Assembly (NCBI GenBank): GCA_937952305.1
Contig: CALFZO010000006.1
Coordinates: forward strand, 136,558 to 200,557
Length of the DNA: 64,000 nucleotides
Source of the DNA: an uncultured Anaerolineales bacterium
Lineage (GTDB): Bacteria > Chloroflexota > Anaerolineae > Anaerolineales > UBA6663
Reading direction: 5' to 3'
The notes under the pieces were generated by a model that had not been told where the DNA came from, searched no databases, and saw only the letters and a program-made list of their open reading frames with translations. Shown here one piece after another: positions 41,483 to 61,175 of the stretch. Within the stretch, counting starts at the first letter, position 1, and the number at the start of each line of letters is the position of its first letter. The position numbers and the translations under genes were made by a program.

Positions 41483-41544
41483 TCTCGCCTCTTGCGGCCT
41501 AGAAATCAGAGACTGGAGACCAGAGTCTGACAAGGACGCCCTAC

Positions 41545-42540: not shown

Positions 42541-42560
42541 AGGCCCAAGGCCCGCCGAGC

Positions 42561-42806: not shown

Positions 42807-42850
42807 GCGCCGGCCGGCGTCCGCCGTCCACTGTCTTTCGTCAGGCCAAT

Positions 42851-44011: not shown

Positions 44012-44034
44012 GCGGCGCCGCGCCAGACTGGCCC

Positions 44035-44493: not shown

Positions 44494-44537
44494 CAGGCCG
44501 CCCTTCGTCTTTCGTCCGCCGTCATCCGTCAGTCGCC

Positions 44538-46120: not shown

Positions 46121-47410
46121 ATGCCGAAACCAGAGTTCAACCCCTTTGAGGTCGCCCAACGCCAGTTCGACGCCGTCGCCGACAAGCTCAAGCTGGACGA
46201 GCACGTGCGCGCCATCCTGCGCTGGCCGATGCGCGAGTACCGCTTCCAGATCCCGGTGCGCATGGACGACGGCTCGATCAACGTCTACTTCGGCTACCGT
46301 GTCCAGCACAACGACGCGCGCGGCCCGGCCAAGGGCGGCATCCGCTTCCACCCGAATGAGACCGTGGACACGGTCCGGGCGCTGGCGATGTGGATGACGT
46401 GGAAATGCGCGGCCGCCGATATCCCGCTCGGCGGCGGCAAGGGCGGCGTGGTGGTGGACCCGGCCGGCCTGTCGGTGGGCGAGAAGGAGCGCCTGTGCCG
46501 CGGCTTCATCGACGGCATCTGGAAGAACCTCGGCCCGCGCATCGACGTGCCCGCCCCGGATGTGGGCACCACCCCGCAGATGATGGGCTGGATGATGGAC
46601 GAGTACTCCAAACTCACCGGCCAGTATGTGCCGGGCGTGATCACGGGCAAGCCGGTGGGCAGCGGCGGCTCGCTCGGCCGTACGGAGGCCACCGGCTTCG
46701 GCGTCATCCACACCATCCGTGAGGCGCTGCGCCTGCTGCAGTTGGACGGCCGCACCTGCACGGCGTCGGTGCAGGGCTTCGGCAACGTCGGCCAGTATGC
46801 GGCCATCGGCTTCAGCGAGCTCCTGGGCGGCAAGGTGGTGGCCGTCTCGTGCTATGACCGGCACGACAAGACCGCGCACACCTTCTTCAAGCCGGACGGC
46901 CTGGACGCGCGCTTCCTGCAGTCCATCACCGACCAGTACGGCACGATCGACAAGGCCAAGGCCCAGGCGGCCGGCTGCGTGATCGAACCCGGCGACGCCT
47001 GGCTGTCTAAGGACGTGGACGTGCTCATCCCGGCCGCGCTGGAGGGCCAGCTCACCGCCGAGACGGCCGACCAGGTCAGCCGCCAGGTCAAGATCGTGGC
47101 GGAGGGCGCCAACGGCCCGACCACGCCCGAGGCCGACGCCATCTTCCAGAAGCGCGGGCTCTTCCTGATCCCGGACTTCCTGTGCAACGCCGGCGGCGTG
47201 ACGGTCTCGTACTTTGAAAGCGTGCAGAGCGACGCCAACTACTACTGGGAGCACGAGGCCGTGCTGCGCCGGCTGGATCAGAAGATGACGGCCGCCTTCC
47301 AGGGCGTCTCCCAGATGGCGCGCGAGCGCGACGTCTACATGCGCGACGCCGCCTACATGGTCGCGATCGACCGCGTGGTCAAGGCGATGGAATTGCGCGG
47401 CTGGGTGTAG
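46121..47410 (+). CDS. gdhA: Glutamate dehydrogenase (Glu/Leu/Phe/Val dehydrogenase family)
   Basis: 429 aa with GPAKGGIRFHP, the catalytic-Lys region PLGGGKGGV and an NAD(P) fold VQGFGNVG. SD AAGGAG precedes the start. Confidence 0.95.
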   Translation: MPKPEFNPFEVAQRQFDAVADKLKLDEHVRAILRWPMREYRFQIPVRMDDGSINVYFGYRVQHNDARGPAKGGIRFHPNETVDTVRALAMWMTWKCAAADIPLGGGKGGVVVDPAGLSVGEKERLCRGFIDGIWKNLGPRIDVPAPDVGTTPQMMGWMMDEYSKLTGQYVPGVITGKPVGSGGSLGRTEATGFGVIHTIREALRLLQLDGRTCTASVQGFGNVGQYAAIGFSELLGGKVVAVSCYDRHDKTAHTFFKPDGLDARFLQSITDQYGTIDKAKAQAAGCVIEPGDAWLSKDVDVLIPAALEGQLTAETADQVSRQVKIVAEGANGPTTPEADAIFQKRGLFLIPDFLCNAGGVTVSYFESVQSDANYYWEHEAVLRRLDQKMTAAFQGVSQMARERDVYMRDAAYMVAIDRVVKAMELRGWV

Positions 47411-47440
47411 CCGCCGAACCGGCCTCGCCGGATAACGCGC

Positions 47441-47476
47441 CGTGCCCGGCCAATGGCCGGGCACGGCTTTTTCTTT
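47441..47476 (+). terminator. Canonical rho-independent terminator after gdhA
   Basis: CGTGCCCGGCC (47441-47451) pairs with GGCCGGGCACG (47455-47465), an 11-bp perfect stem with a 3-nt loop, followed by GCTTTTTCTTT. Confidence 0.85.
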
Positions 47477-47494: not shown

Positions 47495-50029
47495 TCAGCC
47501 CGCGTCCGGGGCCAGCAGCGCCACCGCCTGGCTGCGCACATCGTCCAGGATCAGCTCAAGGTGGTGCCCCGGCCGAAAATCGGCGACGTCGATCAGGCGC
47601 AGGCAGGCGGCCACCGCCGGGCTGGCCGCCACCCGGTCCAGCAGGCGGTTGGGCGTGCCGGAGAAAAAATCCTGGTTGAAGACTGACTGCGGATCGTCCA
47701 GGCAGACGGCCACCGGGTAGATCTGCGCCTCCATCAGGTCCTGAAAGAAGTGCGTGCCCAGGGACGGCTCCGGCGCCGGCCCATGGCCGCGCCCGGCCAG
47801 CTCCACCAGGGCGCCGGCGTTGTAGATGTCGGCGTAGCTCACGTACACGCCCAGCTCCGGGTTGGTGGTGCCCCAGCGGCCCGGCCCCACCAGGATGTAC
47901 GCCTTCTCGCCCAAAGTAAGGTTGAGCTGCGCGATGGCCTTGGTCAGCTCGGCGCGCCCGGCCGCCGTGGGCAGGACCGAGTAGGCCTCGGGCGCCACGT
48001 AGACCACGTGGCGGATGTGCGGCAGGTAGCCTTGCGGCACCACAAAGCGCGTAGACAGGATGACGCGCTCCGGCGCCAGGTCGCGTGGCAGGGCGGCCAC
48101 GGCCGGCAGCGGCAGCGTGCTTTGCGGCCGGCATTGCAGCAGCGTCAGCGCCACCTGCGGCCGCCCGCCGTCGGCGTCCACCACGCGCACCGTGAACTCC
48201 AGGTCCACGGCCACGTGGTAATGCTCCTCCAACACCCGCAGCATCTGGGCCAGCAGGGCCGCGAAGGAGGTCCGGCGCACCAGGCCATCGAAGGTCAGCA
48301 CCAGGCCGGGGATGTCGCCGGCCAGCAGCGTGCCGCGCGGCGTCGTGAAGAAGCCGTCCGCCTCCAGTTGCGCCAGGTAGCGCAGCGCCGGGTAGTCCGG
48401 CGTCAGGACCTCGGCCACCGGCCGGGTGACCAGCGTGTTGGCCTCCAGGTCGATCAGGTCCACCCAGTGCTGTGAGTAGAAGCGCAGAGCCTCCGGCGAG
48501 TCGTCGGGCTGGAGGGTGGGGTGGCTGAGCGCGATCAGGTGCGGGTAGTCGTTGCCGACGCGGTCGACGGCGCGCGTCCCCAGCCCCCACACCAGCCGCA
48601 CAAAGCCGGCCTCGGGCCGGATGCGCGGCGACCAGCGATACAGGTTGCGGCTGAAGGCCACGCCCGCCCCGAACGGCAGGCAATAACGCCCAAAGCGCTC
48701 GCCCTGCACCACCTGGATCAGGATGGCCATGCGCTCGTCGTAGTCTTGCAGCTTCTTGCTGCGCCGGTAGAGCAGGGCCTCCGGCTTGAGCGTGCTGGCG
48801 TACGTTTGGGCAATGGCCTGCGTCAGCGCCCGCAGGTTCTCGTCCGGCGTCCCCTGGTTGGGACAGAAGAAGCTGTCGTACTTGCCGGCGAAAGAGGTGC
48901 CGAAGTTGTCCTCTAACTGGCTGGACGAGCGCACGATCAGCGGCTGCGCGCCCACGCGCGCCAGCATCGCCTCCAGCTCGCGCACGATCTCGGGCGGGAA
49001 CCCGCCGGCCTGGAACTCGGCCTGGATCTGCGGATACTCCGCCCGGATCTGGTCCTCCGGCTTGTATTTCTGATTGTTCCAGTGCATCAGCCCGTTCATG
49101 GCCATGAACAGGTAGATCAGGTCCGAGCCCAGATAGTAGGACTCGGGCACGCGCACACTGGCGCGCACCGCCGGGTCGGCCGCCGTCTGCAGGATGCGCG
49201 CCGCCAGCCGGAGGCCGGCCGCCTTGCCGCCGATGCGGCCTTGGCCGATCCGGTGCGCGTAGATCTCGGCCAGGTCCGCCAGGGTCAGCCACTCCTTGGC
49301 CACGTTGATGTAGGCGAGTTGATCGCTGATCAGGCGCCGGATCAGGGCGACCTTGATATCGCGCCGGCAGTGCGCCAGGAACTCCTGCTCGCGCGCCGGC
49401 AGCTTCTCGATCGCTTGGGCTTGCGCGAACAGCACGCTCTCCGGGATCAGCTCCGGGTCGGAAAAAGCCAGCAGGTCCTGGACCGCCTGGTCCAGGTCAC
49501 GCGGCGTGGCGCGCTCGCCGCCGGCCCGCTGCCAGATCGGCGCCGAGTGGATCACGCGGCGATGGATCACCAGGCCGTGGCCGCGGCATTGCTGGATGTC
49601 GTCGTCATCCACCATCTGCAGATCAAGCGTAAAGCAGGCCGGGCGTGCGTTGCGGCAGCCATAGCGGCGCCGGCGCTCCGCCAGCCCCGCTTCCAGCGTC
49701 TCCCCCAGGCCGTGCAGGGCCGCGCTCTTGCGTTCCACCCACGCGATCAGGTTGATGCCGCCGCGCCGGCTGCCATCGCCCAGGCCGGCCGCGCCGTCCT
49801 CGCCGGTGCTGCGGTAGATGGCCTTGACGGTCGGGTCCAGCCGGCCGACGAGCTCGCCGACCTGCCGGACCAGGCTGTCACACAGCGCGCCGCAGACGTC
49901 GCAGCGCCCCTCGCGCAGGGCTTGCTGCGCCTGCGGGGCGTTGCCGCCGAACTTGGCCGCCGCGCAATCGGCGACGGCCTGGTCCAGCAGTTGGTCGGCC
50001 AACGCGGGGTCTAGTTCCACGGCGGACAT
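47495..50029 (-). CDS. PPDK_N (PEP/pyruvate-binding, ATP-grasp) domain protein without phosphohistidine swivel or TIM domains, paralog A
   Basis: Motifs are IGGKAAGLRLAARIL and PLIVRSSSQLEDNFGTSFAGKYDSFF, and LLQCRPQS ends the ATP-grasp. The conserved C-terminal GPGRWGTTNPELGV...EPSLGTHFFQDL region is of unknown function. ATG 50029 (AAGGGTGGG upstream) is preferred over GTG 50038. Confidence 0.8.
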   Translation of the reverse strand: MSAVELDPALADQLLDQAVADCAAAKFGGNAPQAQQALREGRCDVCGALCDSLVRQVGELVGRLDPTVKAIYRSTGEDGAAGLGDGSRRGGINLIAWVERKSAALHGLGETLEAGLAERRRRYGCRNARPACFTLDLQMVDDDDIQQCRGHGLVIHRRVIHSAPIWQRAGGERATPRDLDQAVQDLLAFSDPELIPESVLFAQAQAIEKLPAREQEFLAHCRRDIKVALIRRLISDQLAYINVAKEWLTLADLAEIYAHRIGQGRIGGKAAGLRLAARILQTAADPAVRASVRVPESYYLGSDLIYLFMAMNGLMHWNNQKYKPEDQIRAEYPQIQAEFQAGGFPPEIVRELEAMLARVGAQPLIVRSSSQLEDNFGTSFAGKYDSFFCPNQGTPDENLRALTQAIAQTYASTLKPEALLYRRSKKLQDYDERMAILIQVVQGERFGRYCLPFGAGVAFSRNLYRWSPRIRPEAGFVRLVWGLGTRAVDRVGNDYPHLIALSHPTLQPDDSPEALRFYSQHWVDLIDLEANTLVTRPVAEVLTPDYPALRYLAQLEADGFFTTPRGTLLAGDIPGLVLTFDGLVRRTSFAALLAQMLRVLEEHYHVAVDLEFTVRVVDADGGRPQVALTLLQCRPQSTLPLPAVAALPRDLAPERVILSTRFVVPQGYLPHIRHVVYVAPEAYSVLPTAAGRAELTKAIAQLNLTLGEKAYILVGPGRWGTTNPELGVYVSYADIYNAGALVELAGRGHGPAPEPSLGTHFFQDLMEAQIYPVAVCLDDPQSVFNQDFFSGTPNRLLDRVAASPAVAACLRLIDVADFRPGHHLELILDDVRSQAVALLAPDAG

Positions 50030-50068: not shown

Positions 50069-50096
50069 CGCTCAACTGAGCGCGCTCAGTTGAGCG
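50069..50096. repeat. 28-bp perfect palindrome spanning the stop codon of the GltS-FMN-like gene
   Basis: CGCTCAACTGAGCG (50069-50082) is immediately followed by CGCTCAGTTGAGCG (50083-50096). Confidence 0.9.
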
Positions 50097-51732
50097 ACGG
50101 CAGCGGCGGCTTGCGGCGCGTCTTGGGCCGCGCGCCGCGCGATCCGGACCGGCGCTCAGACGCGGTGTGCCCGTTGCCCTGGCGCCCCACCGGGGCCAGC
50201 GCCTCCCAGATGGGCAGCGGCCGCTCGTAGCCCGCCAGCTTGAGGCCGGTCAGCGCGGCCGTGTTCATGTCCAGCGCGCGCAGATCCTCGGTGGACAGGT
50301 CGGCGATGGCGCGATGGCCGGAGAGCATGGTCAGGATCTTGACCTCCTCCGCGCAGGCATGGATGAAGTTGGCCAGCTTCTGCCCGGCCGCCAGCGGGTC
50401 CAGGCGGGCGCGCAGTTCGGGCTTCTGGCTGGTGATGCCGTACGGGCAGTTGCCCTTGTGGCAGGCGTAGCAGGCGCGGCAGCCCATGGCGATCTCGGCC
50501 GCGCTGCCGAAACCAACCGCGTCGGCGCCCATGGCCAGGGCCTTGAAGGCGTCCAGGCCGTTGCGCAGGCCGCCCAGCGCGATCAGCTTGACCTGGCGGT
50601 GCACGCCATAGTCCTTCAGCGCCTGGACCGCCGGCGGGAGACAGGCGATGGTGGGGATGCCCACGCCCTGGGTGACGATGTCCGGCGAGCAGCCGGTGCC
50701 GCCCACCAGGCCGTCGATGCTGATGGCGTCGGCGCCGGCTTCGATGCAGGCGGCCACGTCCGCGTACGGGCGCGACGGCCCGAGCTTGAACAGGATCGGC
50801 ACGCGATAATCGGTGACGTCGCGCAGGAACGCCACCATGCGGCGCATGTCCTCCGGCGTCTGCACGTCATAGTAACGGCACGGGCTGAGCGCGTCCGAGC
50901 CCACCGGCACGCCGCGCACGCGTGAGACGGCCTCCGTGACCTTGGAGCCGAGCAGGTGGCCGCCCATGCCGGGTTTAGCGCCCTGGCCGATCTTGACCTC
51001 GACCGCGTCGCCGGCGTTGACGTAGTCCGCCGAGACGCCCCACCGGCCGGTGGACCACTGGATGACGAGGTAGCCGCCCGGGTCCCACTGCTTGTGGGCG
51101 CGGGCCTCATCGGCGTAACCGCGCGCCAGCCACGCCTCGGCCGGCACCAGGCCGCCCTCGCCGGTGTTGGTGGCGATGCCGGTCAGGGCCGCGCCGATGG
51201 CCAGGGCCTGCTTGGCCTCCTGGCTCAGCGCGCCGAACGACATGGCCGCCCACACAAACGGCAGCTTGAGCCGCAGCGGCTGGGAGCAAGTGTCCGCGCC
51301 GATGATCACTTCCAGGTCGCACTCCTCGCGGTACTTGTCGCGCGGCGCCGCGCTGGCGATCTGGCTGGGCACAACCGTGATCGTATCGAAGTTGGGCGTC
51401 GGGCCTTGCGTGCCAAAGCCGCGCAGCAGGTACTCGCCGGTCTGGGCTTTGGCGTGGACTTCTTCCACGGCGGCCAGCGTCCACGGGTAGCGGCTGAGAT
51501 ACTCCGACTCGGCCGGGTTGATGCGGATGGCGTCGGCCGGGCAGAACTCGGCGCAGATCCGGCAGCCCACGCAGGCGTTGTAGTTCTGGATGTGCATCGC
51601 GCCGCTGGCGAGGTCAAGCGCGTACACGCCGTGCGGGCAGACTTCGGCGCAGGTGGCGCACTTGCCCGGCATCTGCGCGTTGAGGCAGGCTTCTTGGTTA
51701 ACACTGATACAAAAGGCGCCTATGACAGCCAT
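50086..51732 (-). CDS. Glutamate-synthase FMN-domain (GltB domain 2-like) protein with N-terminal 2x[4Fe-4S] ferredoxin domain
   Basis: 548 aa with N-terminal CATCAEVCP and CVGCRICAEFCP. GltS motifs are TNTGEGG, KIGQGAKPGMGGHLLG, SIDGLVGGTGCSP, ALGGLRNGLDAFKALAMGADAVGFG and CRACYACHKGNCPYGITSQ. SD GAGGAGG precedes the start. Confidence 0.85.
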   Translation of the reverse strand: MAVIGAFCISVNQEACLNAQMPGKCATCAEVCPHGVYALDLASGAMHIQNYNACVGCRICAEFCPADAIRINPAESEYLSRYPWTLAAVEEVHAKAQTGEYLLRGFGTQGPTPNFDTITVVPSQIASAAPRDKYREECDLEVIIGADTCSQPLRLKLPFVWAAMSFGALSQEAKQALAIGAALTGIATNTGEGGLVPAEAWLARGYADEARAHKQWDPGGYLVIQWSTGRWGVSADYVNAGDAVEVKIGQGAKPGMGGHLLGSKVTEAVSRVRGVPVGSDALSPCRYYDVQTPEDMRRMVAFLRDVTDYRVPILFKLGPSRPYADVAACIEAGADAISIDGLVGGTGCSPDIVTQGVGIPTIACLPPAVQALKDYGVHRQVKLIALGGLRNGLDAFKALAMGADAVGFGSAAEIAMGCRACYACHKGNCPYGITSQKPELRARLDPLAAGQKLANFIHACAEEVKILTMLSGHRAIADLSTEDLRALDMNTAALTGLKLAGYERPLPIWEALAPVGRQGNGHTASERRSGSRGARPKTRRKPPLPSLN

Positions 51733-51742
51733 GGCGTCCTCC

Positions 51743-52393
51743 TCAGTTGTAGAACGGCTTGGGCGACGCGGCCACGACCTTCTGGAAGCGGGCCGGGTCG
51801 GCCGTCAGGCCGTATTGCTCGAAGTAGCCGCGCAGCTTGGCCAGGTCGGCCTCGGTCAGCGGCTCCACGCGCGTGTTGTGGCCGAGGCTCCGCCACGCGC
51901 CGCCGATGTAGACGGTGCCGCGGATCAGGTAGTTGGCGAAGTTGGCGCCGGCGTCCCCGACGATCACCAGATCACCCTTGAGCATGTAGGTGCCGGCCTC
52001 GTCGCCGACGTCGCCAGCCACCAGGATGACGGCGCCCTTGTTCATGGTCGCGGTGAAGTCGCCGGCGTCGCCGCGCACGACGACGGTGCCGCCATAGCAG
52101 TACTGGCCGGCGCCGTAGCCGGCGTCGCCGTCCACGATGACGGTGCCGGCCGTCATGTTGTCGGCCAGATACTGGCCGGCGTTGCGCTGCACGTGCAGGG
52201 TCGCCCCGGCGTTCAGCACGCCCAGGTAGTCGCCGGCGTCGCCCGCGATCTCCACCTGGCCCTGCTTCAACCCGGCCGCCAGGCCGTGCACGTGGGCGGC
52301 GTGCCTCACCGTCACCGGTTCTCCGTTCAGGGAAGCGCGCAGCGCCTGGTTGACGGCGCGCAGGTCTTTGTGTTTGGCGTCAATGGTCTTCAT
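51743..52393 (-). CDS. GXGXG-motif protein (GltB domain 3 / FwdC-like)
   Basis: 216 aa with repeated GDAG/GxGxG turns (IAGDAGDYLG, VDGDAGYGAG, VRGDAGDFTA, VAGDVGDEAG, IVGDAGANFA). SD GGGAGGTGG precedes the start. Confidence 0.85.
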   Translation of the reverse strand: MKTIDAKHKDLRAVNQALRASLNGEPVTVRHAAHVHGLAAGLKQGQVEIAGDAGDYLGVLNAGATLHVQRNAGQYLADNMTAGTVIVDGDAGYGAGQYCYGGTVVVRGDAGDFTATMNKGAVILVAGDVGDEAGTYMLKGDLVIVGDAGANFANYLIRGTVYIGGAWRSLGHNTRVEPLTEADLAKLRGYFEQYGLTADPARFQKVVAASPKPFYN

Positions 52394-52408
52394 CGTCCAC
52401 CTCCCGCC

Positions 52409-53575
52409 TCAACAGCCCGTGCAGCCGTTGCGCGCCCGGGTTGGCGCGCCGGCTCGGCTGGGGGTGCGGTACAGGCGCGTGAACTGCTGGATGGCTTCAC
52501 CACGCTTAAGCGGGTCGGCCAGCGCATCCAGGGCCAGCACGCGCCAATCCTGGAAGGCCTCCGCCCGCGCGCGCCGGTCCTTGTCCCCGGCCGCCGCCGC
52601 CAGCGCGGCTTCGTCCACGTCCCGGCCGGTCTCCAGCAGCCCCATCTGCACCGCGTTGCGCACGAAGACGTCGCCGGCGCGGGTGCGGATAAGCAGGCTG
52701 GCCGCGTCCGCGTTGGCGTCCAGCGTCCCCAGCGCCAGGTCGGCGGATTCGCCCAGGTAGTCATCGCAGCTCGCGCAGCCGGCGCGCGTGTAGGCTTCGG
52801 CCTCCTCGCGCGGGAGGGTGCGGACGCTGCCGTCCCACAGGTGCGCGTTGAGCCAGCGCCGGTCCGGCGAGACCTCCAGCCGCTTCACCTGCTGGCGCGG
52901 CACGCCCAGGCGCTGCACCAACACGTCCTCGATCAACTCCGGGCGGTAGACGCCGGTGCAGAACAGCGCCACCGTCAGGCGCACGGCGTCCTGATACGGC
53001 TTCAGGCGCGGATTGGTGGAAGCCTTGAGCTTGCGGATGGCCTGCGCCGCGCAGGGCGGGCCGACGATGGCGATGTCCTTCAGGCCGCGCTCGAAGACGG
53101 CTTCATTCAGCGCATCCAGCACCGGCGCCCACAGATAGTGCAGGCCCACGCCCTCGGCGATCGCCTCCACCGTGGAGACGACCTCAGTTACGGGCCGCAG
53201 GTCCCACGGGTCCAGGTCCAGCCGGACGACGCCGTCCAGCAGGCCGGCGCTCAGCCCGGCCACCAGGAGGCTGCGCGCGACGTCGTTGGGCGTCCCGCCG
53301 CGCACCGGTCCGCGCGCGCGCGCCGAGACGGTCACCTGGGCCTCCAGCGGCGCCCAGCGCTCCAGGCGCGGGCAGACCGCTTCGCAGAAGTGCTGGCAGA
53401 ACGAGCAGCTGTCCAGCGGGCCTTTGGTGTAGCCGACGGTCTTCAGACGCGCCGCCAGCACGGGATGCTCGCCGCCGTTCCATTGCAGCACCTGCTTGGA
53501 GCAGGCCGCCACGCACAGGCCGCAGCCCGCGCAGCGCTCCAGCGCCCAGACCTCCTTCTCTAATCGTGTCGCCAT
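52409..53575 (-). CDS. FrhB/FdhB-family (coenzyme F420 hydrogenase/dehydrogenase beta-subunit-like) FeS flavoprotein
   Basis: ATG at 53575 with CAGGAGGTGAAAGC upstream. 388 aa with N-terminal Cys motifs CAGCGLCVAAC...CSFCQHFCEAVCP, then IAIVGPPCAAQAIRKL, LFCTGVY and CASCDDYLGESADLALG. The listed ORF 52409-53992 has a 139-codon Arg/Pro junk extension overlapping the upstream gene. Confidence 0.8.
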   Translation of the reverse strand: MATRLEKEVWALERCAGCGLCVAACSKQVLQWNGGEHPVLAARLKTVGYTKGPLDSCSFCQHFCEAVCPRLERWAPLEAQVTVSARARGPVRGGTPNDVARSLLVAGLSAGLLDGVVRLDLDPWDLRPVTEVVSTVEAIAEGVGLHYLWAPVLDALNEAVFERGLKDIAIVGPPCAAQAIRKLKASTNPRLKPYQDAVRLTVALFCTGVYRPELIEDVLVQRLGVPRQQVKRLEVSPDRRWLNAHLWDGSVRTLPREEAEAYTRAGCASCDDYLGESADLALGTLDANADAASLLIRTRAGDVFVRNAVQMGLLETGRDVDEAALAAAAGDKDRRARAEAFQDWRVLALDALADPLKRGEAIQQFTRLYRTPSRAGAPTRARNGCTGC

Positions 53576-53631
53576 GCTTTCACCTCCTGAAGGTGGCGGT
53601 TGATCGGATTGTTGCGAATCGGCCTCAATGT

Positions 53632-55701
53632 TCACGGCCGCCGGTTGGGCGCACCCACCTCGGCCGCCAATTGGCTGGCGGCTGTGGCGAAGCCGCGCCC
53701 GTCGTCGCCGGACAGCGCCAGCCAGCGCAGCCGGCGCGGGTCGACGCCGCGTTCGGCCAGCTGGGCCTGCAACGCCTGGACGCGCTCGTGGGCGAAGCGG
53801 TTGCCCTGGCCGTGATGACATTCGCCGGCCGGGCAGGCCGCCACCAGCACGCCGGCGGCGCCGTTGAGGAACGCCCAGAGCACGTGGTCGCCGCTGAGGC
53901 GGGCCGAACAGCCCAGGCGGATCAGGCGGGTGCTGGCCGGGTACGGCCAGCCGCGCGCCCCGGCAATACCGGCGGCGGCGTCGCCGCTCCACTCGCAGCC
54001 GAAGACCACGACGCGCGGCGCTCCCTCGGCCGTCGCCAGGGCGGCCTCAATCTGCGCGAAGAGCGCGGCGTCCTCGGCGCCGGGCAGCGTCAGCGCGCGC
54101 ACCGGGCAGGCGGCCACGCAGCTGCCGCAGCCCGTGCAGCGGCGCCCGTCCACGCGCACGAGTGAGAGCGGCCCCGGCTGGGCGCTCAGGCTGAGCGCGG
54201 CCTGCGGGCAGGCCTGAACGCATTGCGCGCAGCCCGTGCATAGCGCCTCGTCCAAGGCGGGGATGGGCGCGTCCAATTGCAGGCGGCCCTGGCCGAGGTA
54301 GCGCAGGACGCGCGCGCCGGTGAGATAAGCCTGGAACTCGACTTCGGACACGCTGGCCGGCTGATGCAGGCCGCCCAGCACGAACAGGCCGTCGTCGGCG
54401 TAGCGGCCGGGGCGCAGGCGGAAGCGCCGCTCGATGAGAAAGCCGTCGGCGTCCCGCGGCAGGCCCAGCACGGCGGCCAGCCGGTCCGCGCCCGCCGCCG
54501 GCACCCACGGCAGCGCCAGCACCAATCGGTCGAAGGGCAGCTCGATCAGGTCGCGCGTGGCCGGCAGCGGCACGCTCACCGTCCGCGCGTCGATCACGGG
54601 CGGATGCGCCGGGTCGTAACGCACGAAGGCGACTCCGGCCGCCTGGGCGGCGGCCAGGTCTTGCCAGCCGGCCTCGGCGTCCTCGCCAAGCACCAGGTCC
54701 CGGAACAGCAGCGTCACCTCCGTCGCCGGGTTGAGCTCTTTCACGCGCGCGGCCTGGCGCAGACCGGCGCGGCAGCACACGCGTGAGCAGCGGCCGCCTG
54801 GCCCACGCTCGGCGCACAACTGGATGACGACGTGCTGAAACGGGCAGCCGCCCGCCTCGGCCAGGGCCGCCAGCTCCATCTCAAATTCGGCCTGGGTCCG
54901 GACGCGGGCGCGGGGATACCAGCGGGTGGCGCCCAGCGGCTGCGGCGCGGCGCCCAGCGCGGCCACGATCGCGCCGGCCGGCGTCACCGCCTGGACACCG
55001 GCCTGCTCCCAGGTCACCTGGTATTCGCCGGGCGCGCCGGCGACGGCGATGACCTGGGCGTTGAGCCGGGTCGTGATGAGCGGATGGGCGCGAACGGCCG
55101 CGATGCGGGCCGCGATCTGGTCCTGATCGGCGGCCTCGAAGCTGGGCGAGAGCCCTCCCAGGGCGCCGTCCGGGTCGATCACGGTGACGGGCGTCCCGCC
55201 CTCGGCCAGCGTCAGCGCCACGGTGAGGGCGCCCAGCCCGCCGCCGATGACGACGGCCGCCTTCGTCAGCGGATACGTGCGCGGCGCCGCCGGCGTCAGG
55301 GCCGCCAGACGCGCCGCGCCCATGGCGATCAGGTCGACGGCCTTGGCCTGCGCGGCCTCCGGCTCAGCGGCATGCACGCACGCGCATTGTTCGCGCACGT
55401 CCGCGATGGCGACGGCGTCGGCCGGCAAACCAGCCGCCTGGACCGTGGCGCGGAAGAGCGGCTCCACCAGGCGCGGCGCACAGGCGGCCACCAGCACGCG
55501 GTCCAGGTGCTCGGCCTGGATGGCGGCCTGCAGACGCGCGCGGCCATCCGGCCCGCAGGCGCAGGTCTCGCACGTCACGTGGGCGACGCCAGGCAGATCA
55601 GCGGCGGCGCGCGCCAGCCTCTCCGGCTCCAGCGGCCTCGGCCGGCCGAGCGTGCCGCCGCAATCACAGACGACGATCCCCAGGCGCGGTGAGTCGCTCA
55701 T
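53632..55701 (-). CDS. HdrA-like FAD/FeS protein with C-terminally fused MvhD (methyl-viologen-reducing hydrogenase delta) domain
   Basis: The ATG at 55701 overlaps the upstream stop (ATGA). 689 aa. The HdrA N-domain pattern reads GIVVCDCGG...VLVAACAPRLVEPLF...IADVREQCACVH. FAD fold AAVVIGGGLGALTVALTLAEGG, CSRVCC and the ferredoxin pair CTGCAQCVQACP / CTGCGSCVAACP follow. The MvhD pattern is VVVFGCEWSGD...RLGCSARL...VLVAACPAGECHHGQGN. Confidence 0.8.
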   Translation of the reverse strand: MSDSPRLGIVVCDCGGTLGRPRPLEPERLARAAADLPGVAHVTCETCACGPDGRARLQAAIQAEHLDRVLVAACAPRLVEPLFRATVQAAGLPADAVAIADVREQCACVHAAEPEAAQAKAVDLIAMGAARLAALTPAAPRTYPLTKAAVVIGGGLGALTVALTLAEGGTPVTVIDPDGALGGLSPSFEAADQDQIAARIAAVRAHPLITTRLNAQVIAVAGAPGEYQVTWEQAGVQAVTPAGAIVAALGAAPQPLGATRWYPRARVRTQAEFEMELAALAEAGGCPFQHVVIQLCAERGPGGRCSRVCCRAGLRQAARVKELNPATEVTLLFRDLVLGEDAEAGWQDLAAAQAAGVAFVRYDPAHPPVIDARTVSVPLPATRDLIELPFDRLVLALPWVPAAGADRLAAVLGLPRDADGFLIERRFRLRPGRYADDGLFVLGGLHQPASVSEVEFQAYLTGARVLRYLGQGRLQLDAPIPALDEALCTGCAQCVQACPQAALSLSAQPGPLSLVRVDGRRCTGCGSCVAACPVRALTLPGAEDAALFAQIEAALATAEGAPRVVVFGCEWSGDAAAGIAGARGWPYPASTRLIRLGCSARLSGDHVLWAFLNGAAGVLVAACPAGECHHGQGNRFAHERVQALQAQLAERGVDPRRLRWLALSGDDGRGFATAASQLAAEVGAPNRRP

Positions 55702-56435
55702 CGGGCCTTCTCTTTCTGCGCGGCCGAGGCCGCCGCCGGAGCCAACACCGCCGGCACATCCGCCATGCCGCGCGGCGTCAGGTCCTGGTCGCCGCAGGCC
55801 TGGCAATACTGGCGCGCCTCGTCGGCGCCGGTGTGGAGGCTGCGGAAGCCGGCGACATCGGCCAGGGTCAGGTGGCCGGTAGGGCAGATCAGCACGCACG
55901 TGCCGCAGCCGATACAGGCCGAGGCCGCCGGCTCATCGAAGGGCGGGCTGACCCGTTTGGCCAGGCCGCGCCGGGTGAGGCTGATGGCGCCGACGCCCAC
56001 GATCTCGCGGCAGGCGCGCACGCACAGGCCGCACACCACGCAGGTGTCGGCCTCCGGGCGCCGGTAGCGCGGCGCCTCCACGCCCAAGCTGCGCGCCAGC
56101 GCCTGGATCTCGGGCGAGGTGTATGCACCGGCGAGCAGGAGTTCGGCCGTGATCCGGCGGCTGCGCTGCACCAGGTCTGAGTGCGTGCACACCACCAACC
56201 CCGGCTCACACGGATACGCGCAGGCGGCGGCCAGGCGCGCCGGGCGCGGGCGCCGATCGCCCGGCGGCGGCGGCGCGCTCACCTCCACCACGCACAGCCG
56301 GCAGGCGCCGTAGGGCTTCAACGCCGGATGGTGGCACAGGGTCGGCACGGCGATGCCATGCTCACGGCACGCTTCCAGGAGCGTGCGCCCCTCGGCCACC
56401 TCCACGCTGCGGTCGTCGATCGTCAACTGGATCAT
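55698..56435 (-). CDS. NuoG/HydA N-terminal-like ferredoxin: [2Fe-2S] plus 2x[4Fe-4S], no catalytic domain
   Basis: 245 aa. Fer2_4-like MIQLTIDDRSVEVAEGRTLLEACREHGIAVPTLCHHP...GACRLCVVEV is followed by CVVCGLCVRAC and CIGCGTCVLICP. Confidence 0.8.
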   Translation of the reverse strand: MIQLTIDDRSVEVAEGRTLLEACREHGIAVPTLCHHPALKPYGACRLCVVEVSAPPPPGDRRPRPARLAAACAYPCEPGLVVCTHSDLVQRSRRITAELLLAGAYTSPEIQALARSLGVEAPRYRRPEADTCVVCGLCVRACREIVGVGAISLTRRGLAKRVSPPFDEPAASACIGCGTCVLICPTGHLTLADVAGFRSLHTGADEARQYCQACGDQDLTPRGMADVPAVLAPAAASAAQKEKAR

Positions 56436-56444
56436 GGCGGGGCC

Positions 56445-58346
56445 TCAATTGACCGTGACCGCGTCGAACTTGCACACGCTCTGGCACAGGCCGCAGCGCG
56501 TGCAGACCGCCGGGTCGATGGTGTGGATCTGCTGCTTAGCGCCGTGGATGGCGCCGGCCGGGCAGTTGCGCAGGCAGACCTGACAACCCGAGCACCGCTC
56601 CGGCTGGATGGCGTACGTGATCAGGCCTTTGCAGACCTTGGCCGGGCAGCGCTTGTGCAAGATGTGCGCGTCATACTCGGCGCGGAAGTAACGCAGGGTC
56701 GAGAGGACCGGATTAGGCGCGGTCTGGCCCAGGCCGCACAGCGACGAGCGCTTGATCATCTCGCCCAGCTCCAGCAGGTAATCCACGTCGCCGGGCTGCC
56801 CGTGGCCGGCGCAGATGCGCTCCAGCGTCGCCAGCATGGCCTGTGTGCCCACGCGGCAGGGCACGCACTTGCCGCACGACTCCTCCTGCGTGAACTGCAT
56901 GAAGTAGCGGGCGAAGTCCACCATGCAGGTGTCCTCGTCCGCCACCACCAGGCCGCCCGAGCCGACGATGGCGCCGAGCGCGGTCAGCGATTCATAGTCG
57001 ATGGACGTGTCCAGGTGCTCGGCCGGGATACAGCCGCCGGACGGCCCGCCGATCTGGGCGGCCTTGAAGGCCTTGCCGCCGGGGATGCCGCCGCCGATGT
57101 CGAAGATCAGGCGGCGCAGCGAGATGCCCAGCGGCACCTCCACCAGGCCGGTGTTGTTGATCTTGCCGACCACCGAGAAGATCAGCGTGCCCTTGCTGGT
57201 GGGCGTGCCCAACTGCGCGTACCAGTCCGCGCCGTTGGCCAGGATGAGCGGCACCGCCGCCCAACTCTTGACATTGTTGATGTTGGTCGGTTTGCCCCAC
57301 AGGCCGGCCTCGGCCGGATAAGGCGGGCGCGGGCGCGGCTCGCCCACGCGGCCTTCGATGGACGCCATCAGCGCGGTCTCCTCGCCGCAGACAAAAGCGC
57401 CGCTGCCCAGCCGCACGCTGACCCGAAAATCGAAGCCGGAGCCCAGGATGTTCTCGCCCAACAGGCCGCGCGCCTCGGCCTGGGCGATGGCGGCGCGCAG
57501 GTGCTTGACGGCCAGCGGGTATTCGTTGCGGATGTAGACGAAGCCGCGCCGCGCCCCGATGGCGTACGCGCCGATCAGCATCCCCTCCAGCACGCGGTGG
57601 GGGTTGCCCTCCATGATCGAGCGGTCCATGTAGGCGCCCGGGTCGCCCTCGTCCGCGTTGCAGATCACGTACTTCACGTCGCCGGGCTGACGCCGGCACA
57701 GGTCCCACTTCTGCCCGGTGGGGAAGCCGGCGCCGCCGCGCCCGCGCAGCCCGGAGGCCTTGACTTCGGCGATGACGGCCGCGGGCGTCAGGGCCAGCGC
57801 CTTGGCCAGCGCGGCGTAGCCGCCGGCGGCCACGTAGTCGGCCAGGCTGAGCGGATCGAGCGTGCCGTTCAGGTCCAGCACCAGGCGGTGCTGATGTTTA
57901 TAGAACGGGACCTCGGTCTCATACGGCAGCCGGGCGCCGGACTGCGGCTCGGTGTACAGCAGGCGGTCGAGCACGCGGCCGCCGTCCACAGTGGCCGCCG
58001 CGATCTCGGCGGCATCCTCCGGCTTGACGCGCGTGTACATCAAGCGCTGCGGATGGAGCACCACCAGCGGCCCGCGCTCACAGAACCCGTGGCAGCCGGT
58101 GACGCGCACCGGGCGCCCGTCGCCGCGCGCCGCCAGCTCACGCTGCAGCGCCTGGCAGACGCGCTCGCTGCCGTAGACGCGGCAGCCGGTGCCGCCGCAG
58201 ACCGTGATGGCCGGCTGGTTGGGCTGATCCGCGGCGGTCAGGGCCGCACGCCAATCCGCCAGATCGGCAAGCTGGTGCAGCTGTGGATCGCGGCCATTGG
58301 CCGGCGCTGGCGCGGCTTCCAGCGGGGAGGGCGGGGTCTTAAGCAT
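56445..58346 (-). CDS. NuoF/HydB-like NADH-binding FMN FeS flavoprotein with extra N-terminal thioredoxin-like [2Fe-2S] and C-terminal 2x[4Fe-4S] domains
   Basis: 633 aa with GLRGRGGAGFPTGQKW, NADEGDPGAYMDR and ESCGKCVPCRVG. The N-terminus carries VCGGTGC...CHGFCERGP. The C-terminus carries CSGCQVCLRNCP and CTRCGLCQSVC. Confidence 0.9.
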   Translation of the reverse strand: MLKTPPSPLEAAPAPANGRDPQLHQLADLADWRAALTAADQPNQPAITVCGGTGCRVYGSERVCQALQRELAARGDGRPVRVTGCHGFCERGPLVVLHPQRLMYTRVKPEDAAEIAAATVDGGRVLDRLLYTEPQSGARLPYETEVPFYKHQHRLVLDLNGTLDPLSLADYVAAGGYAALAKALALTPAAVIAEVKASGLRGRGGAGFPTGQKWDLCRRQPGDVKYVICNADEGDPGAYMDRSIMEGNPHRVLEGMLIGAYAIGARRGFVYIRNEYPLAVKHLRAAIAQAEARGLLGENILGSGFDFRVSVRLGSGAFVCGEETALMASIEGRVGEPRPRPPYPAEAGLWGKPTNINNVKSWAAVPLILANGADWYAQLGTPTSKGTLIFSVVGKINNTGLVEVPLGISLRRLIFDIGGGIPGGKAFKAAQIGGPSGGCIPAEHLDTSIDYESLTALGAIVGSGGLVVADEDTCMVDFARYFMQFTQEESCGKCVPCRVGTQAMLATLERICAGHGQPGDVDYLLELGEMIKRSSLCGLGQTAPNPVLSTLRYFRAEYDAHILHKRCPAKVCKGLITYAIQPERCSGCQVCLRNCPAGAIHGAKQQIHTIDPAVCTRCGLCQSVCKFDAVTVN

Positions 58347-58884
58347 GCTGCGCCTCCGCCGCCTGGCGCGTCAGGCGCTTCCAGAGCATTTCGGCCTTGG
58401 GCGCCGTCATCTGCCCGGAGTACTCGCCGTCGGCGACGACGATGGGGCCGAGCGCACAGGCGCCCAGGCAGTTGACGGTCTCGAGCGTGAACTCGCGGTC
58501 GCGCGTGGTGGCGCCGGGGCTGACCCCCAGCCGCGTCGCCAGCCGCTCCAGCACCCGCGGGCTGCCGCGCACGTGGCAGGCCGTGCCCATGCACACCTGC
58601 AGGCAGTGCCGGCCTTTTGGCTTGAGGCTGAAGGCGTTATAGAACGTGGCGACGGCGTAGACGTCGGCGAGCGGGAGGTGGAAGCGCTCGCCGGCCAGGA
58701 TCAGGGCCGCGCGCGGCAGGTAGCGGCAGCGCGCCTGAACCGCCTCCAGCGCGGCGATGACCGAGCCTTCGCCGCGCGCTTCCTGGTCGATGAGCTGGTA
58801 GAGGTCGCCGACCGGCAATAGCATAGCGGGCTGCTCCAGGGGCGACAGCGCCGCGCCGTCGACGCGTCCGGCCAGCCGGTTCAA
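58339..58884 (-). CDS. NuoE/HydC-like thioredoxin-fold [2Fe-2S] protein
   Basis: VATFYNAFSLKPKGRHCLQVCMGTACHVRG...VNCLGACALGP. The start is ambiguous (TTG 58884 or ATG 58824). The stop overlaps the NuoF-like start by 8 nt. Confidence 0.85.
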   Translation of the reverse strand: MNRLAGRVDGAALSPLEQPAMLLPVGDLYQLIDQEARGEGSVIAALEAVQARCRYLPRAALILAGERFHLPLADVYAVATFYNAFSLKPKGRHCLQVCMGTACHVRGSPRVLERLATRLGVSPGATTRDREFTLETVNCLGACALGPIVVADGEYSGQMTAPKAEMLWKRLTRQAAEAQHA

Positions 58885-59077
58885 ACGCCCGGCACGGCCG
58901 CTGCGGCCCGATGAGGATGGCGGATGGGTGTTGCGGCTCGAACGGTGAGGGCGCCCGGCCCGCCGGGGCCTCCGGCCTCAGAGTAATCGGAAGCGCGTGA
59001 GCGCTGCGCGAAGATGGGGCGGCGTTACGTGAGGACTGCGTGAAGAAGCGGGGGGTTGCCGGTCAGCGCGCTCCGGC

Positions 59078-59785
<708 letters not shown>

Positions 59786-59804: not shown

Positions 59805-61175
59805 TCACGCCGCCGGGCGCGGCAGAGAAAAGTACAGCGTAGTGCCCTGCCCGGTCTTGCTCTCAACCCAGATCCGGCCGCCGTGCGCCTCGACGATGGC
59901 GCGCGCGATCGGCAGCCCCAGGCCCGCGCCCGGCACGTACGGGCTGCCCGACGACGCGGCGCGGAAGTATTTCTCAAACAGCGGGATCAGGTCCTCCGGC
60001 GCAATGCCGACACCCTGATCGGCCAGGCTGACCACCACGTCGCGCGGCCGCACCTCGCCGCGCACCAGGATCAGGCCGCCGTTGGGCGAGTACTTCACGG
60101 CGTTGTCGAGCAGGTTGCGCAGCACCTGGGTGATCCCGCGCGCGTCGCATTCCAGCACCGGGAAGCCGGGCGGAAAATCGGTCAGCAGGCGATGGCGCTG
60201 CGTCAGGCGCTGGGTCTCGTCCACCAACTGCCGCACCAGGGCGGGCAGGTCCAGCGGCCGGCGCTCGACACGGATCTGGTGGACCTCCAGCAGCACCGAG
60301 TCTAGGATCTCGCGGATCAGGCCCTGCATGTTGTCGCACTCGGCCTCGATCAGGCGCAGGAACTCGGCATGCTTGGCGGCGCTCCAGTCGACCTCTTTGA
60401 GCATGAGCGCGGTGGCGTACCCCTTGATCGCCGTCAGCGGCATGCGCAGCTCGTGGGAGAGGGTGGCCACCAGCTCCCGACGCAGACGCTCGGCTTCGCG
60501 CGCCACGCGCACGGCGTCGGCCTTGGCCGCCAGGCGGGCTTGGCCGATGGCCAGCGCGAGCAGGTCGGCCAGCGTCTGCACAAAGGGCACATCGGCGGGG
60601 CGGAAAGCCGTCGGCCGGGTCCAGGTCTCCAGCACCAACACGCCGAGCTTCTCGCCGTTCATGACGAGCGGCGCGGCCACAGCGCAGCGCGGCGGCGCGT
60701 CCGCGTCCGGGCCGAGGGCCAGGGCCCGCGCCATCGCCACGCGGTTGGCGCAGCGCATGTTGGCCACCGCGGCGGCGGCCTCGGCGGGCGTCGCCAGCAG
60801 GCGGGCCTGGCCGCTGTCGAAGACCTGGCCCGTGATCGATTCGCCCGCGCGCAGGCCCACCGTCTTGAGCAGCGTCAGGTCATAGCCGAAGGCCGCTGCC
60901 GCCCGGAACAGGCCGGCCTCGTGGTCCCACAGCATCACGGCGCCCGTCTCGGCCGGCTCCAGGACATCGACCACGGCGGCCATGACCGCCTGGAGCAGCT
61001 CCGGCAGTTCCAGCCGCGAGGTCAGGATCTTGGCGACCGCGGTCAGCGCCTGCAGTTCGCGCGTCAGGCGCGCCACCGGGAGGTCGTCGCTCAGCGCGCT
61101 CCCAGGCGTTACCGTCTGCATCGCCGGCGGAAATCTCATAATGTTGGCGAATTTCGGACGATATAGACGAAACAA
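59805..61175 (-). CDS. Cytoplasmic GAF-domain sensor histidine kinase
   Basis: No TM segment is present. The GAF-like region (LLQAVMAAVVDVL...GESITGQVF...GVLVLE) is followed by H-box LSHELRMPLTAIKGY and the HATPase N/G boxes (LRNLLDNAVKYSP, DQGVGI, GAGLGLPIA). The start is uncertain (TTG 61175, ATG 61139 or ATG 61121). Confidence 0.85.
   Translation of the reverse strand: MFRLYRPKFANIMRFPPAMQTVTPGSALSDDLPVARLTRELQALTAVAKILTSRLELPELLQAVMAAVVDVLEPAETGAVMLWDHEAGLFRAAAAFGYDLTLLKTVGLRAGESITGQVFDSGQARLLATPAEAAAAVANMRCANRVAMARALALGPDADAPPRCAVAAPLVMNGEKLGVLVLETWTRPTAFRPADVPFVQTLADLLALAIGQARLAAKADAVRVAREAERLRRELVATLSHELRMPLTAIKGYATALMLKEVDWSAAKHAEFLRLIEAECDNMQGLIREILDSVLLEVHQIRVERRPLDLPALVRQLVDETQRLTQRHRLLTDFPPGFPVLECDARGITQVLRNLLDNAVKYSPNGGLILVRGEVRPRDVVVSLADQGVGIAPEDLIPLFEKYFRAASSGSPYVPGAGLGLPIARAIVEAHGGRIWVESKTGQGTTLYFSLPRPAA

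Follow-up and report, generated by a model that had tools for sequence, protein, structure and literature searches.

We analysed a 64,000-nt stretch of DNA from an uncultured Anaerolineales bacterium (GCA_937952305.1, contig CALFZO010000006.1, positions 136,558-200,557; hereafter the window, G+C ~70%), and focused on a minus-strand gene cluster that appears to join an electron-input core of the Bfu type to the synthase half of a glutamate synthase (GltS). The cluster comprises seven co-oriented open reading frames (ORFs), A to G, which run from 58884/58824 to 50086 and are listed in Table 1 together with the features around them. A preliminary description, made from the sequence alone, had proposed these genes, and all seven were recovered from the window with the coordinates, strand, and spacing that it gave, the junctions from A-B to F-G measuring -8, +9, -4, +56, +15, and +10 nt. 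Their G+C content at third codon positions (0.83-0.94) is of the coding type, and Pfam and NCBIfam profile searches returned the expected families for every domain that had been named. Altogether, the seven-gene set holds ~19-20 conserved iron-sulfur (FeS) sites and two or more flavin sites. None of the six A-G intergenic junctions contains a terminator-like site; a weak match (51274-51261, minus strand) lies inside gene G. For gene A, translation more probably starts at the ATG at 58824 than at the TTG at 58884, because the former has a GGAG 10 nt upstream and yields a protein of 161 amino acids (aa) that matches the gene calls of homologs. A sigma-70 promoter scan, which is uninformative for a Chloroflexota genome of 70% G+C, found no site before gene A, and an Rfam scan of the window revealed no RNA element. 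The seven genes are thus real, but the unit does not stop at 50086, where the preliminary description had ended it: an eighth gene, H, follows G after 56 nt with no terminator in between. A perfect palindrome without a T-tract, TCAACTGAGCGCGCTCAGTTGA, spans the stop codon of G at 50071-50092 (minus strand) and might work as an RNA-stability element or as an attenuator between G and H.

Table 1. Genes and sequence features at the locus (window coordinates)
Feature	Position	Strand	Basis or remark
A: BfuC/NuoE/HoxE-like thioredoxin-like [2Fe-2S] subunit	58339..58884	-	PF01257
B: BfuB/HydB-type NADH-FMN subunit	56445..58346	-	PF01257 (N-terminal) + PF01512 + PF10589 + 2x Fer4
C: minimal BfuA/HoxU-like (NuoG N-terminal-like) subunit	55698..56435	-	PF13510 + 2x Fer4
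D: HdrA-derived protein with fused MvhD	53632..55701	-	HdrA-like + PF02662
E: FrhB-family protein, Fsr-N/FpoF architecture	52409..53575	-	Fer4 + PF04422/PF04432
F: GXGXG beta-helix protein	51743..52393	-	PF01493
G: ferredoxin-fused GltB FMN (synthase) domain	50086..51732	-	Fer4 + PF01645
H: eighth gene, X + PPDK_N ATP-grasp + C-terminal part	47495..50029	-	Pfam
Soluble GAF-HisKA-HATPase sensor histidine kinase, first gene of the co-oriented block	59805..61175	-	Pfam
OmpR-type response regulator, receiver + Trans_reg_C, likely start ATG 59785 (MDKPRILIV...)	59078..59785	-	Pfam
Direct repeat TTCACG-N5-TCACGTAA, 11-bp period, ~200 nt upstream of A	59025..59044	-	Sequence
Glutamate dehydrogenase gene	46121..47410	+	PF00208/PF02812, NCBIfam GdhA; convergent here
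Strong hairpin, 13-bp GC, between convergent H and gdh	47439..47467		T-tract on plus strand

To place the cluster among relatives, loci were gathered through a search based on E, with one genome per species. Of the 109 found, 80 were kept, and a more divergent groundwater clade brought the set to 85; each locus covers ~+/-10 kb around the cluster (individual loci carry the prefix L), and some tests covered 82 loci only. The same seven genes, in the same order and on the same strand, are complete in 54 of the 85 loci and intact up to a contig end in another 30, the last one (L009) being frameshifted. No locus among the 85 carries half of the gene set other than by a contig end, nor did any other counter-example turn up. 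The strict synteny and the terminator-free junctions bear out the operon-like character ascribed to the cluster, and the neighbourhood comparison that had been suggested evidenced that the seven-gene order recurs in other genomes. Carriers are nearly all members of the Chloroflexota class Anaerolineae, including the cultured Longilinea arvoryzae KOME-1. Two records are labelled otherwise, namely L014 (JAIWHF010000020, 'Methanosarcinales archaeon') and L044 (DASRZI010000260, 'Zixiibacteriota'). Gene coordinates and identities of L014 are the same as those of the Anaerolineales loci L013 and L015, which suggests mis-binning, and both records are likely mis-binned contigs in public metagenome-assembled genomes. 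Homologs of E form 597 clusters at 90% identity with E <= 1e-10, the best 120 of which have lengths of 382-391 aa and share 64-100% identity with E, and identity of this FrhB-like protein among the loci goes down to 47%. Mean pairwise identity is highest for G (0.77), followed by B (0.67), A (0.62), F (0.60), C and E (0.58 each), and lowest for D (0.46).

The genes transcribed first encode the electron-input core. Protein A matches PF01257 at 142 bits, and its Cys98/103/139/143, which correspond to the ligands of the BfuC C1 [2Fe-2S] cluster, are 100% conserved. Protein B combines the flavin mononucleotide (FMN)/NADH domain with a weakly matched SLBB domain (PF10531) and the N3-type [4Fe-4S] site (B1), whose Cys491/494/497/537 are likewise 100% conserved, and it retains every ligand of the accessory clusters, that is, an N-terminal [2Fe-2S] (Cys50/55/85/89) and a C-terminal 2x[4Fe-4S] with eight Cys. 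Its best Protein Data Bank (PDB) match, over the full length, is the NiFe-HydB of A. mobile (7t2r_B, 829 bits), followed by HydB, NfnB, and StnC. In a survey of Bfu enzymes, residues A202, M204, and C476 and the accessory clusters are described as specific to bifurcating BfuB and lacking from non-bifurcating NuoF homologs (PMC9304861). B reads PGAYMD where the A. mobile protein reads PGAFMD, which keeps the equivalents of A202 and M204, and its C512 aligns to the C476 position; F182, the third residue of the signature paper, found no place in this alignment. Given the full-length 7t2r_B match, the accessory ligands, and the signature residues, A and B are, as judged from sequence, a genuine BfuC/BfuB core, which substantiates the NuoEF-type NADH module placed at this end of the cluster by profile, PDB, and residue matches; the pair would couple NAD(H) and ferredoxin by bifurcation or confurcation. 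Protein C carries one [2Fe-2S] and two [4Fe-4S] sites (conserved Cys34/45/48/72, 132/135/138/142, and 174/177/180/184), and profile searches matched it to HoxU and to the N-terminus of FeFe-hydrogenase A6; neither a catalytic domain nor a His-ligated cluster motif was found in it. A CxxC at its C-terminus is partly conserved (70%).

B departs from this architecture in seven loci (L051, L053, L054, L056, L057 (3907-7119), L061, and L079), where it extends to 1070 aa and a full GltD/NfnB-like module (Fer4_20 + Pyr_redox_2) replaces its C-terminal 2x[4Fe-4S] domain. NADPH may take the place of ferredoxin in this clade, and no earlier description of a BfuB-GltD fusion is known to us. The preliminary description had GltD replaced by a bifurcation-type input chain, an idea that finds partial support: most loci are devoid of GltD, but these seven are not. 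Their ~1.5-kb gap between B and C is the GltD fusion on B and no glutaminase gene. The corresponding gap in L078 contains two unrelated small ORFs.

In the preliminary description, protein D was likened to the HdrA-MvhD of Mvh-Hdr, a flavin-based bifurcating core. D consists of an N-terminal four-Cys cluster, a thioredoxin-reductase-like flavin domain, a C-terminal 2x[4Fe-4S] domain, and the MvhD [2Fe-2S] domain. NCBIfam matched it to HdrA2 (NF040770, 386 bits against a cut-off of 1100, E = 4e-115) and to HdrA (NF041778, 221 against 1400). The alignment of D with HdrA 8rvu_a is confined to residues 3-232 and 304-556, and D has no counterpart of the inserted ferredoxin domain of HdrA (8rvu_a ~245-405, two [4Fe-4S]); the LDCSMC of HdrA aligns to AADQDQ. 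In the window D, the GGGLGA motif and all four Cys of the flavin-adjacent CX8CX3CC cluster are intact. Across 62 D orthologs, this cluster is intact in 30 and reduced to 0-1 Cys in 25, and 14 carry D, E, or S instead of the second glycine of GxGxxG, whereas the other D ligands (N-terminal four Cys, C-terminal eight Cys, MvhD four Cys) are at least 98% conserved. No HdrB/HdrC partner was evident either, since neither the window nor the ORFs of the 82 loci contain a CCG motif and the window yielded no such Pfam match. The flavin site is thus lost in a large part of the family and does not look like a conserved catalytic centre; D therefore looks like an HdrA-derived FeS adaptor that may still bind flavin adenine dinucleotide (FAD) in this organism, and its role as bifurcating core was not supported.

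These features bear on an alternative in which bifurcation is of the HdrA type, the FAD of D splitting NADH electrons, with GltS in place of HdrBC and ferredoxin as the low-potential acceptor. HdrA2 and HdrA are indeed the proteins most similar to D, and the window copy keeps GxGxxA and CX8CX3CC. The 2-oxoglutarate/glutamate couple also lies near the heterodisulfide couple in potential. A tandem of Bfu and HdrA sites has been proposed for Bam-Bfu (PMC9304861). On the other hand, D lacks the LDCSMC cysteines and the inserted ferredoxin domain; we take the latter to be the ferredoxin-reducing branch of HdrA, as in the Mvh-Hdr structure. With the cluster lost in 25 and the glycine replaced in 14 of the 62 orthologs of this least conserved subunit, a catalytic centre that is gone from a third of the family should not be its conserved mechanism, and we judge HdrA-type bifurcation distinctly improbable.

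Downstream of D, protein E belongs to the FrhB family, with 95.6 bits to PF04432 and a marginal 26 bits (cut-off 22) to PF04422. It holds an N-terminal 2x[4Fe-4S] domain and the FrhB [4Fe-4S] site, with 14 conserved Cys in all; Cys175/206/267/270 align to FrhB Cys104/134/192/195 and are invariant. PDB matches include FrhB and 8rja_E. In FrhB, the IGKGK loop is thought to hold the phosphate of coenzyme F420, with S209/V210 as small residues of the F420 site, according to the structural report (PMC3591093). The 163-IGKGK loop aligns to VSPDR in E, and (V/I)SPDR is invariant in the E family; FrhB K75 is replaced by Q or H, S209/V210 align to T/L, and the start of the FAD helix diverges, its conserved QDGG-type sequence reading PND. 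F420 entry through E is hence doubtful on the aligned residues, though E may bind F420 in another mode; of the FrhB-type F420/FAD entry module formerly assigned here, the family domains and cluster cysteines stood and the F420 loop did not. The C-terminus of E (52409-52600, minus strand) is a family-specific helical extension of ~65 aa that ends in GCTGC-stop, with a CxxC in 96-97% of the orthologs; together with that of C, this CxxC could bind a metal between subunits or make up a tail with redox activity.

F420 would nonetheless be central if E, F, and G were a bacterial version of the archaeal-type F420H2-dependent synthase and A-D an NADH/ferredoxin:F420 oxidoreductase docked to it, with F420 as a freely exchanging third or fourth substrate. 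The closest solved relatives of E are all F420-reactive FrhB-type subunits, and E shares the Fsr-N/FGltS(I)-alpha architecture, that is, N-terminal 2x[4Fe-4S] plus FrhB (PMC3448663). F420-Bfu enzymes have been proposed as well (PMC9304861). Moreover, a luciferase-like oxidoreductase encoded at 23121-24122 (plus strand) matches TIGR03617 of the F420-dependent LLM family at 437 bits, above the cut-off of 278, which makes it probable that this Anaerolineales organism uses or makes F420. Against such a role stand the same substitutions in E, namely the invariant (V/I)SPDR for IGKGK, Q/H for K75, the PND at the FAD helix, and the marginal PF04422 score, and we regard an F420-centred enzyme as unlikely.

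The last two genes of the set encode the putative catalytic end. Protein F matches PF01493 (60 bits), and NCBIfam relates it to FwdC and to the GltB C-terminus, the C-terminal part of a GltB tblastn query also matching. Protein G bears an N-terminal 2x[4Fe-4S] ferredoxin domain followed by the FMN domain (PF01645, 352 bits), which aligned to residues 869-1197 of ferredoxin-dependent GltS (Fd-GltS, 1llw). Its E192, Q250, K253, and R273, which do not vary among 59 orthologs, are the counterparts of E903, Q969, K972, and R992 of 1llw; from GltS structures, we take these four residues to line the 2-oxoglutarate/FMN site. Also invariant in the 59 orthologs is a CxxCxxCxxxxCP motif (C418/421/424/429) that retains the three GltS positions of the CX5CX4C [3Fe-4S] motif and adds a fourth Cys, and the cluster next to FMN is therefore likely a [4Fe-4S] instead of a [3Fe-4S]. 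Other differences from 1llw are an invariant His at the Q978 position and SPCRYYD in place of SPPPHHD. PF01645, PF01493, and the site residues thus corroborate the GltS-type FMN/GXGXG core that the preliminary description had set at this end.

What this core lacks is the glutaminase half. With an E. coli GltB sequence, entered by hand, as tblastn query, the amidotransferase and central domains gave no match either across the window or across the 82 loci. As an internal positive control, the FMN part of this query matched 75 times and its GXGXG part 54 times, and in the window they picked out G and F, respectively. Pfam searches on the other window ORFs retrieved no HdrB/C, hydrogenase, formate dehydrogenase, full GltD, or class-II amidotransferase. 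Likewise, none of the recurrent ORF families (clustered; at least 5 of the 82 loci) corresponds to a glutaminase, HdrBC, a hydrogenase, or glutamine synthetase. The absences originally listed for the window (HdrBC, hydrogenase, formate dehydrogenase, and glutaminase) were upheld by Pfam, the CCG scan, and tblastn, and so was that of a GltD-type subunit, since Pfam found no full GltD; the only GltD-like sequence is a partial FAD domain in an ORF at 27662-29083, 22 kb from the cluster. To the question of joining partners, the loci gave a divided answer, as a glutamine amidotransferase never accompanies the cluster (82 loci) and GltD does so in seven, fused to B. Within 27228-29083 (plus strand), the gene for a CBS-pair protein precedes that for a 473-aa pyridine-nucleotide-disulfide oxidoreductase, which resembles GltD in its FAD/NAD(P) part only and has no FeS N-terminus.

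From gene content, ligand conservation, synteny, and the lack of a glutaminase gene close by, we infer that the cluster encodes a Bfu-type, NADH/ferredoxin-linked, ammonia-dependent glutamate synthase, and extend this to complex formation, substrate, direction, and bifurcation; we hold this reading with moderate confidence and its direction with less. A to G, perhaps with H, would assemble into one soluble complex of seven or eight subunits, in which NAD(H) would bind at the FMN of B and ferredoxin at the accessory clusters of B. C, as a minimal BfuA, would carry electrons out of the A/B core, and D and E, the latter with three [4Fe-4S], would act mainly as an FeS relay towards the catalytic end formed by G (FMN domain and likely three [4Fe-4S] of its own) and the beta-helix of F. 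In favour of a relay, FeS ligands of C, D (N-terminal, C-terminal, and MvhD), and E are conserved at 98-100%, unlike the flavin site of D. There, 2-oxoglutarate and free ammonia would give 2-iminoglutarate, to be reduced to L-glutamate at the FMN of G with no need for a glutaminase subunit.

That A-D and E-G might instead be two independent enzymes at one locus, an orphan Bfu/Hdr-like NADH:ferredoxin module and a ferredoxin- or F420-dependent synthase, is suggested by the widest internal gap (56 nt), which falls exactly between D and E, and by the resemblance of E-F-G alone to the proposed archaeal enzyme (PMC3448663). No locus in the 85 has one half alone, contig ends aside, and the D-E gap contains no terminator; besides, A-D lack a catalytic third-substrate subunit of their own, and the PDB matches of D and E include 7bkb and 8rvu, which are of the Fdh-MvhD-Hdr type. 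In such complexes, MvhD and an FrhB-family subunit are known to be in contact. We thus consider two separate enzymes the least probable of the arrangements discussed here.

Within the single-complex reading, the likely source of electrons would be NADH and reduced ferredoxin confurcated at the Bfu core to ~-400 mV, which would provide an ATP-independent push at low ammonium. By our estimate from textbook values, the couple 2-oxoglutarate + NH4+/glutamate lies near -0.13 V under standard conditions and moves towards ~-0.29 V when ammonium is millimolar or lower and glutamate is high, so that NADH alone would then give little driving force. Confurcation is preferred because electrons at ~-0.4 V, as in other Bfu enzymes, would restore the driving force without ATP; this value for confurcated electrons is given in the survey (PMC9304861). 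In the alternative direction, two NADH would yield glutamate and reduced ferredoxin, which would be feasible at high ammonium. The reverse overall reaction would make the enzyme catabolic, oxidising glutamate to 2-oxoglutarate and ammonia during amino-acid fermentation while reduced ferredoxin lifts the electrons to NAD+. Anaerolineae are fermenters, and genes for glutamate dehydrogenase, an aminotransferase, and peptidases lie nearby. Reversible action has also been demonstrated for enzymes of the Bfu type (PMC9304861). A catabolic reaction would, though, spend reduced ferredoxin to make NADH where the adjacent glutamate dehydrogenase already oxidises glutamate, and a linked gene for a 2-oxoglutarate:ferredoxin oxidoreductase was seen in none of the loci examined, so that we deem a catabolic role highly improbable.

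Several observations weigh against a confurcating, glutaminase-free synthase. The case for one complex is built on synteny, and the D-E and G-H gaps, of 56 nt each, could hold internal promoters. The search for a glutaminase covered ~+/-10 kb around the cluster in the relatives, and such a subunit could be encoded elsewhere in the carrier genomes. D and E may still carry functional flavins in this organism, the window D keeping GGGLGA and the four cluster Cys, and E could be an F420 site after all, given the TIGR03617 enzyme. Under standard conditions, making glutamate from 2-oxoglutarate takes place at high potential and does not obviously call for a boost by ferredoxin, and the third substrates for which the Bfu scheme is known to operate are so far of mid potential only.

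Gene H, the candidate eighth member, encodes an N-terminal domain of ~180 aa, here called X, a PPDK_N domain at residues 268-642 (ORF counted from the GTG at 50038), and a C-terminal part of ~200 aa without family match. X occurs alone or fused directly after G in 42 of the 63 loci with room downstream, and in 20 of these 42 PPDK_N comes after it or is fused to it; in other clades it is a stand-alone protein of ~180 aa. It comes after the operon in most clades, with further copies at L083 (9263-9820), L084 (13503-14060), L085 (13485-14021), and L044 (4168-4713). Four Cys are conserved in X (GRCDxC ... C ... C), and its GINLIAWVxRKSAAL block is invariant. The domain has no Pfam or NCBIfam match, and only 22 homologs were found, all annotated as hypothetical. 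An AlphaFold2 model (mean pLDDT 77.5) gave nucleotidyltransferase folds as best Foldseek hits in the PDB, with E = 0.02-0.7 and TM 0.2-0.5, a similarity of the model that is too weak for fold assignment. X could be a regulator, by analogy with those of the GlnE/GlnD type, or an extra subunit. As a rather unlikely extension, the glutaminase-free, confurcation-driven synthase would be an unrecognised route of ammonia assimilation in which low-potential electrons (~-400 mV) stand in for the ATP that glutamine synthetase consumes in the GS-GOGAT cycle. Fermentative Anaerolineae would thereby assimilate nitrogen with high affinity and without ATP, and X, with or without its ATP-grasp partner, would be a dedicated regulator or additional subunit.

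The co-oriented block begins with a sensor kinase gene, upstream of which a promoter-like site maps to 61283-61255, followed by a response regulator gene. The regulator gene precedes A on the same strand in 36 of the 52 loci with enough upstream sequence, with the kinase gene beside it. Of 46 regions upstream of A, 13 contain the k-mer TTTTCACG and 10 the k-mer TCACGTAA, against a maximum of 5 in shuffled sequences. They belong to a tandem repeat, T(T/C)TCACG-N4/5-T(T/C)TCACGTAA, present in the window and in 12 loci (L001, L002, L006-L009, L027, L029, L030, L035, L037, and L080) ~130-175 nt upstream of A. The kinase/regulator pair lies upstream in 11 of these 12 loci, L037 having neither gene there in the synteny comparison. 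The repeat is a candidate binding site of the adjacent OmpR-type regulator, and expression of the cluster would probably be under the control of this regulator and the GAF kinase. On the far side, the glutamate dehydrogenase gene directly adjoins the operon in many relatives, and in 17 loci it is no more than 1.5 kb away. GatB, GatA, GatC, and a class-I aminotransferase are also encoded in the window, and GatB often flanks the cluster. This glutamate-related setting, which like the regulator pair was not part of the preliminary description, speaks for the synthase reading.

Other features were noted around the operon. The GatC/GatA/GatB genes (39695-46040, plus strand) are split by genes for an NTP-transferase (41545-42540) and the class-I aminotransferase (42578-44011), and the same region contains a 152-aa ORF (44035-44493) without family match. 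A second PPDK_N paralog of 779 aa (61337-63676, plus strand) is divergent from the kinase gene, an arrangement shared only with the closest relative, L003. Two large probable surface proteins are encoded on the plus strand, one of 1152 aa with three lamin-tail domains (29272-32730) and one of 1109 aa with CBM_4_9/DUF642 (36290-39619). In the divergent locus L085, a second GXGXG protein (1-743) and a GAF-GAF kinase with an ANTAR response regulator (698-3008) precede the operon, two extra small ORFs lie between B and C, and a HoxEFUYH-type NiFe hydrogenase cluster follows (14084-18906).

If the cluster does encode one enzyme, the Bfu family would gain a high-potential biosynthetic third substrate, and glutamate synthase would acquire a fourth electron input besides NADPH, NADH, and free ferredoxin. 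It would also offer an HdrA-like flavoprotein caught decaying into an FeS adaptor, and a testable hypothesis for ammonia assimilation in energy-limited fermenters. More than 100 species-level genomes carry the operon. Although Anaerolineae rank with the most abundant bacteria of anaerobic digesters, sediments, and the subsurface, their redox and nitrogen metabolism has mostly been deduced from annotation. Automated labels currently assigned to these genes are 'F420 hydrogenase beta', 'heterodisulfide reductase', and 'NADH-quinone oxidoreductase', and they mislead metabolic reconstructions, for example towards hydrogenotrophy or a methanogen-like Hdr. Since Longilinea arvoryzae KOME-1 is a cultured carrier, the question is experimentally tractable.

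Known systems share parts of this set. In its first part, the cluster recalls Bam-Bfu (BamBCDEFGHI), a class II benzoyl-CoA reductase known from Geobacter and Desulfosarcina, which according to the survey contains BfuABC and HdrA/MvhD (PMC9304861). A-D resemble its electron-input part, BamGHI plus BamE/F: BfuC/B/A homologs (BamG/H/I) are combined with HdrA-type and MvhD-like proteins in one complex, and a minimal BfuA feeds further subunits. Bam-Bfu, however, ends in the tungsten-pterin BamBC and has an HdrD-like subunit, whereas the terminal module here is FrhB-like + GXGXG + GltB-FMN, a CCG protein is lacking, and the family is losing its HdrA-like flavin site. In its second part, the cluster is reminiscent of a putative archaeal F420-dependent GltS in which an FrhB-like 'subunit 4' accompanies split GltS subunits (PMC3087415, PMC3448663, PMC9012536). 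Shared traits are the split domain proteins, an FMN protein with an N-terminal ferredoxin domain, and, in place of GltD, an FrhB-like protein that bears additional [4Fe-4S] clusters (PMC3448663, PMC3087415, PMC9012536, PMC8097209). The archaeal enzyme, itself unproven, is written as glutamine- and F420H2-dependent; in the cluster described here, by contrast, no amidotransferase gene is linked (85 loci), the F420 loop is not kept, and four Bfu/Hdr subunits precede the synthase part.

With GltB-GltD and Fd-GltS, the cluster has in common the 2-oxoglutarate-site residues, the GXGXG beta-helix, and an FeS cluster by the FMN; it differs from them in lacking the class-II amidotransferase and central domain, in its four-Cys cluster, and in having GltD in seven loci only, on B. 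Like HdrA2 of the Methanosarcina HdrA2B2C2 and the Fdh/Mvh-MvhD-HdrABC complexes, it encodes an HdrA-MvhD fusion beside an FrhB-family subunit, but D reaches only 386 of the 1100 bits set as HdrA2 cut-off, has neither the inserted ferredoxin domain nor HdrB/HdrC, and does not conserve the flavin site. HydABC, NiFe-HydABCSL, NfnABC, and Stn provide close homologs of A and B with the accessory ligands, and the GltD-fused clade recalls Nfn-Bfu and Stn, in which a GltD-like NADPH module is likewise found. The cluster departs from these Bfu enzymes in its new third-substrate module and in carrying the GltD-like domain on BfuB, in place of the ferredoxin-type clusters, and not on BfuA. The classes named in the Bfu survey and its supplement are hydrogenase, Fdh, Nfn, F420, Por, Codh, Wor, Bam, Rub, Nuo, and Mbh, with no glutamate-linked class among them (PMC9304861), and no description of the A-G subunit set was found in the open-access full-text literature. 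The preliminary description had not recognised the combination as a characterised enzyme, which stands to the extent that no described match emerged, tempered by the parts of it already contained in Bam-Bfu and the archaeal F420-dependent GltS. Collectively, within the open-access literature, these comparisons portray the set as an uncharacterised, new combination of modules known from the Bfu family and from glutamate synthase.

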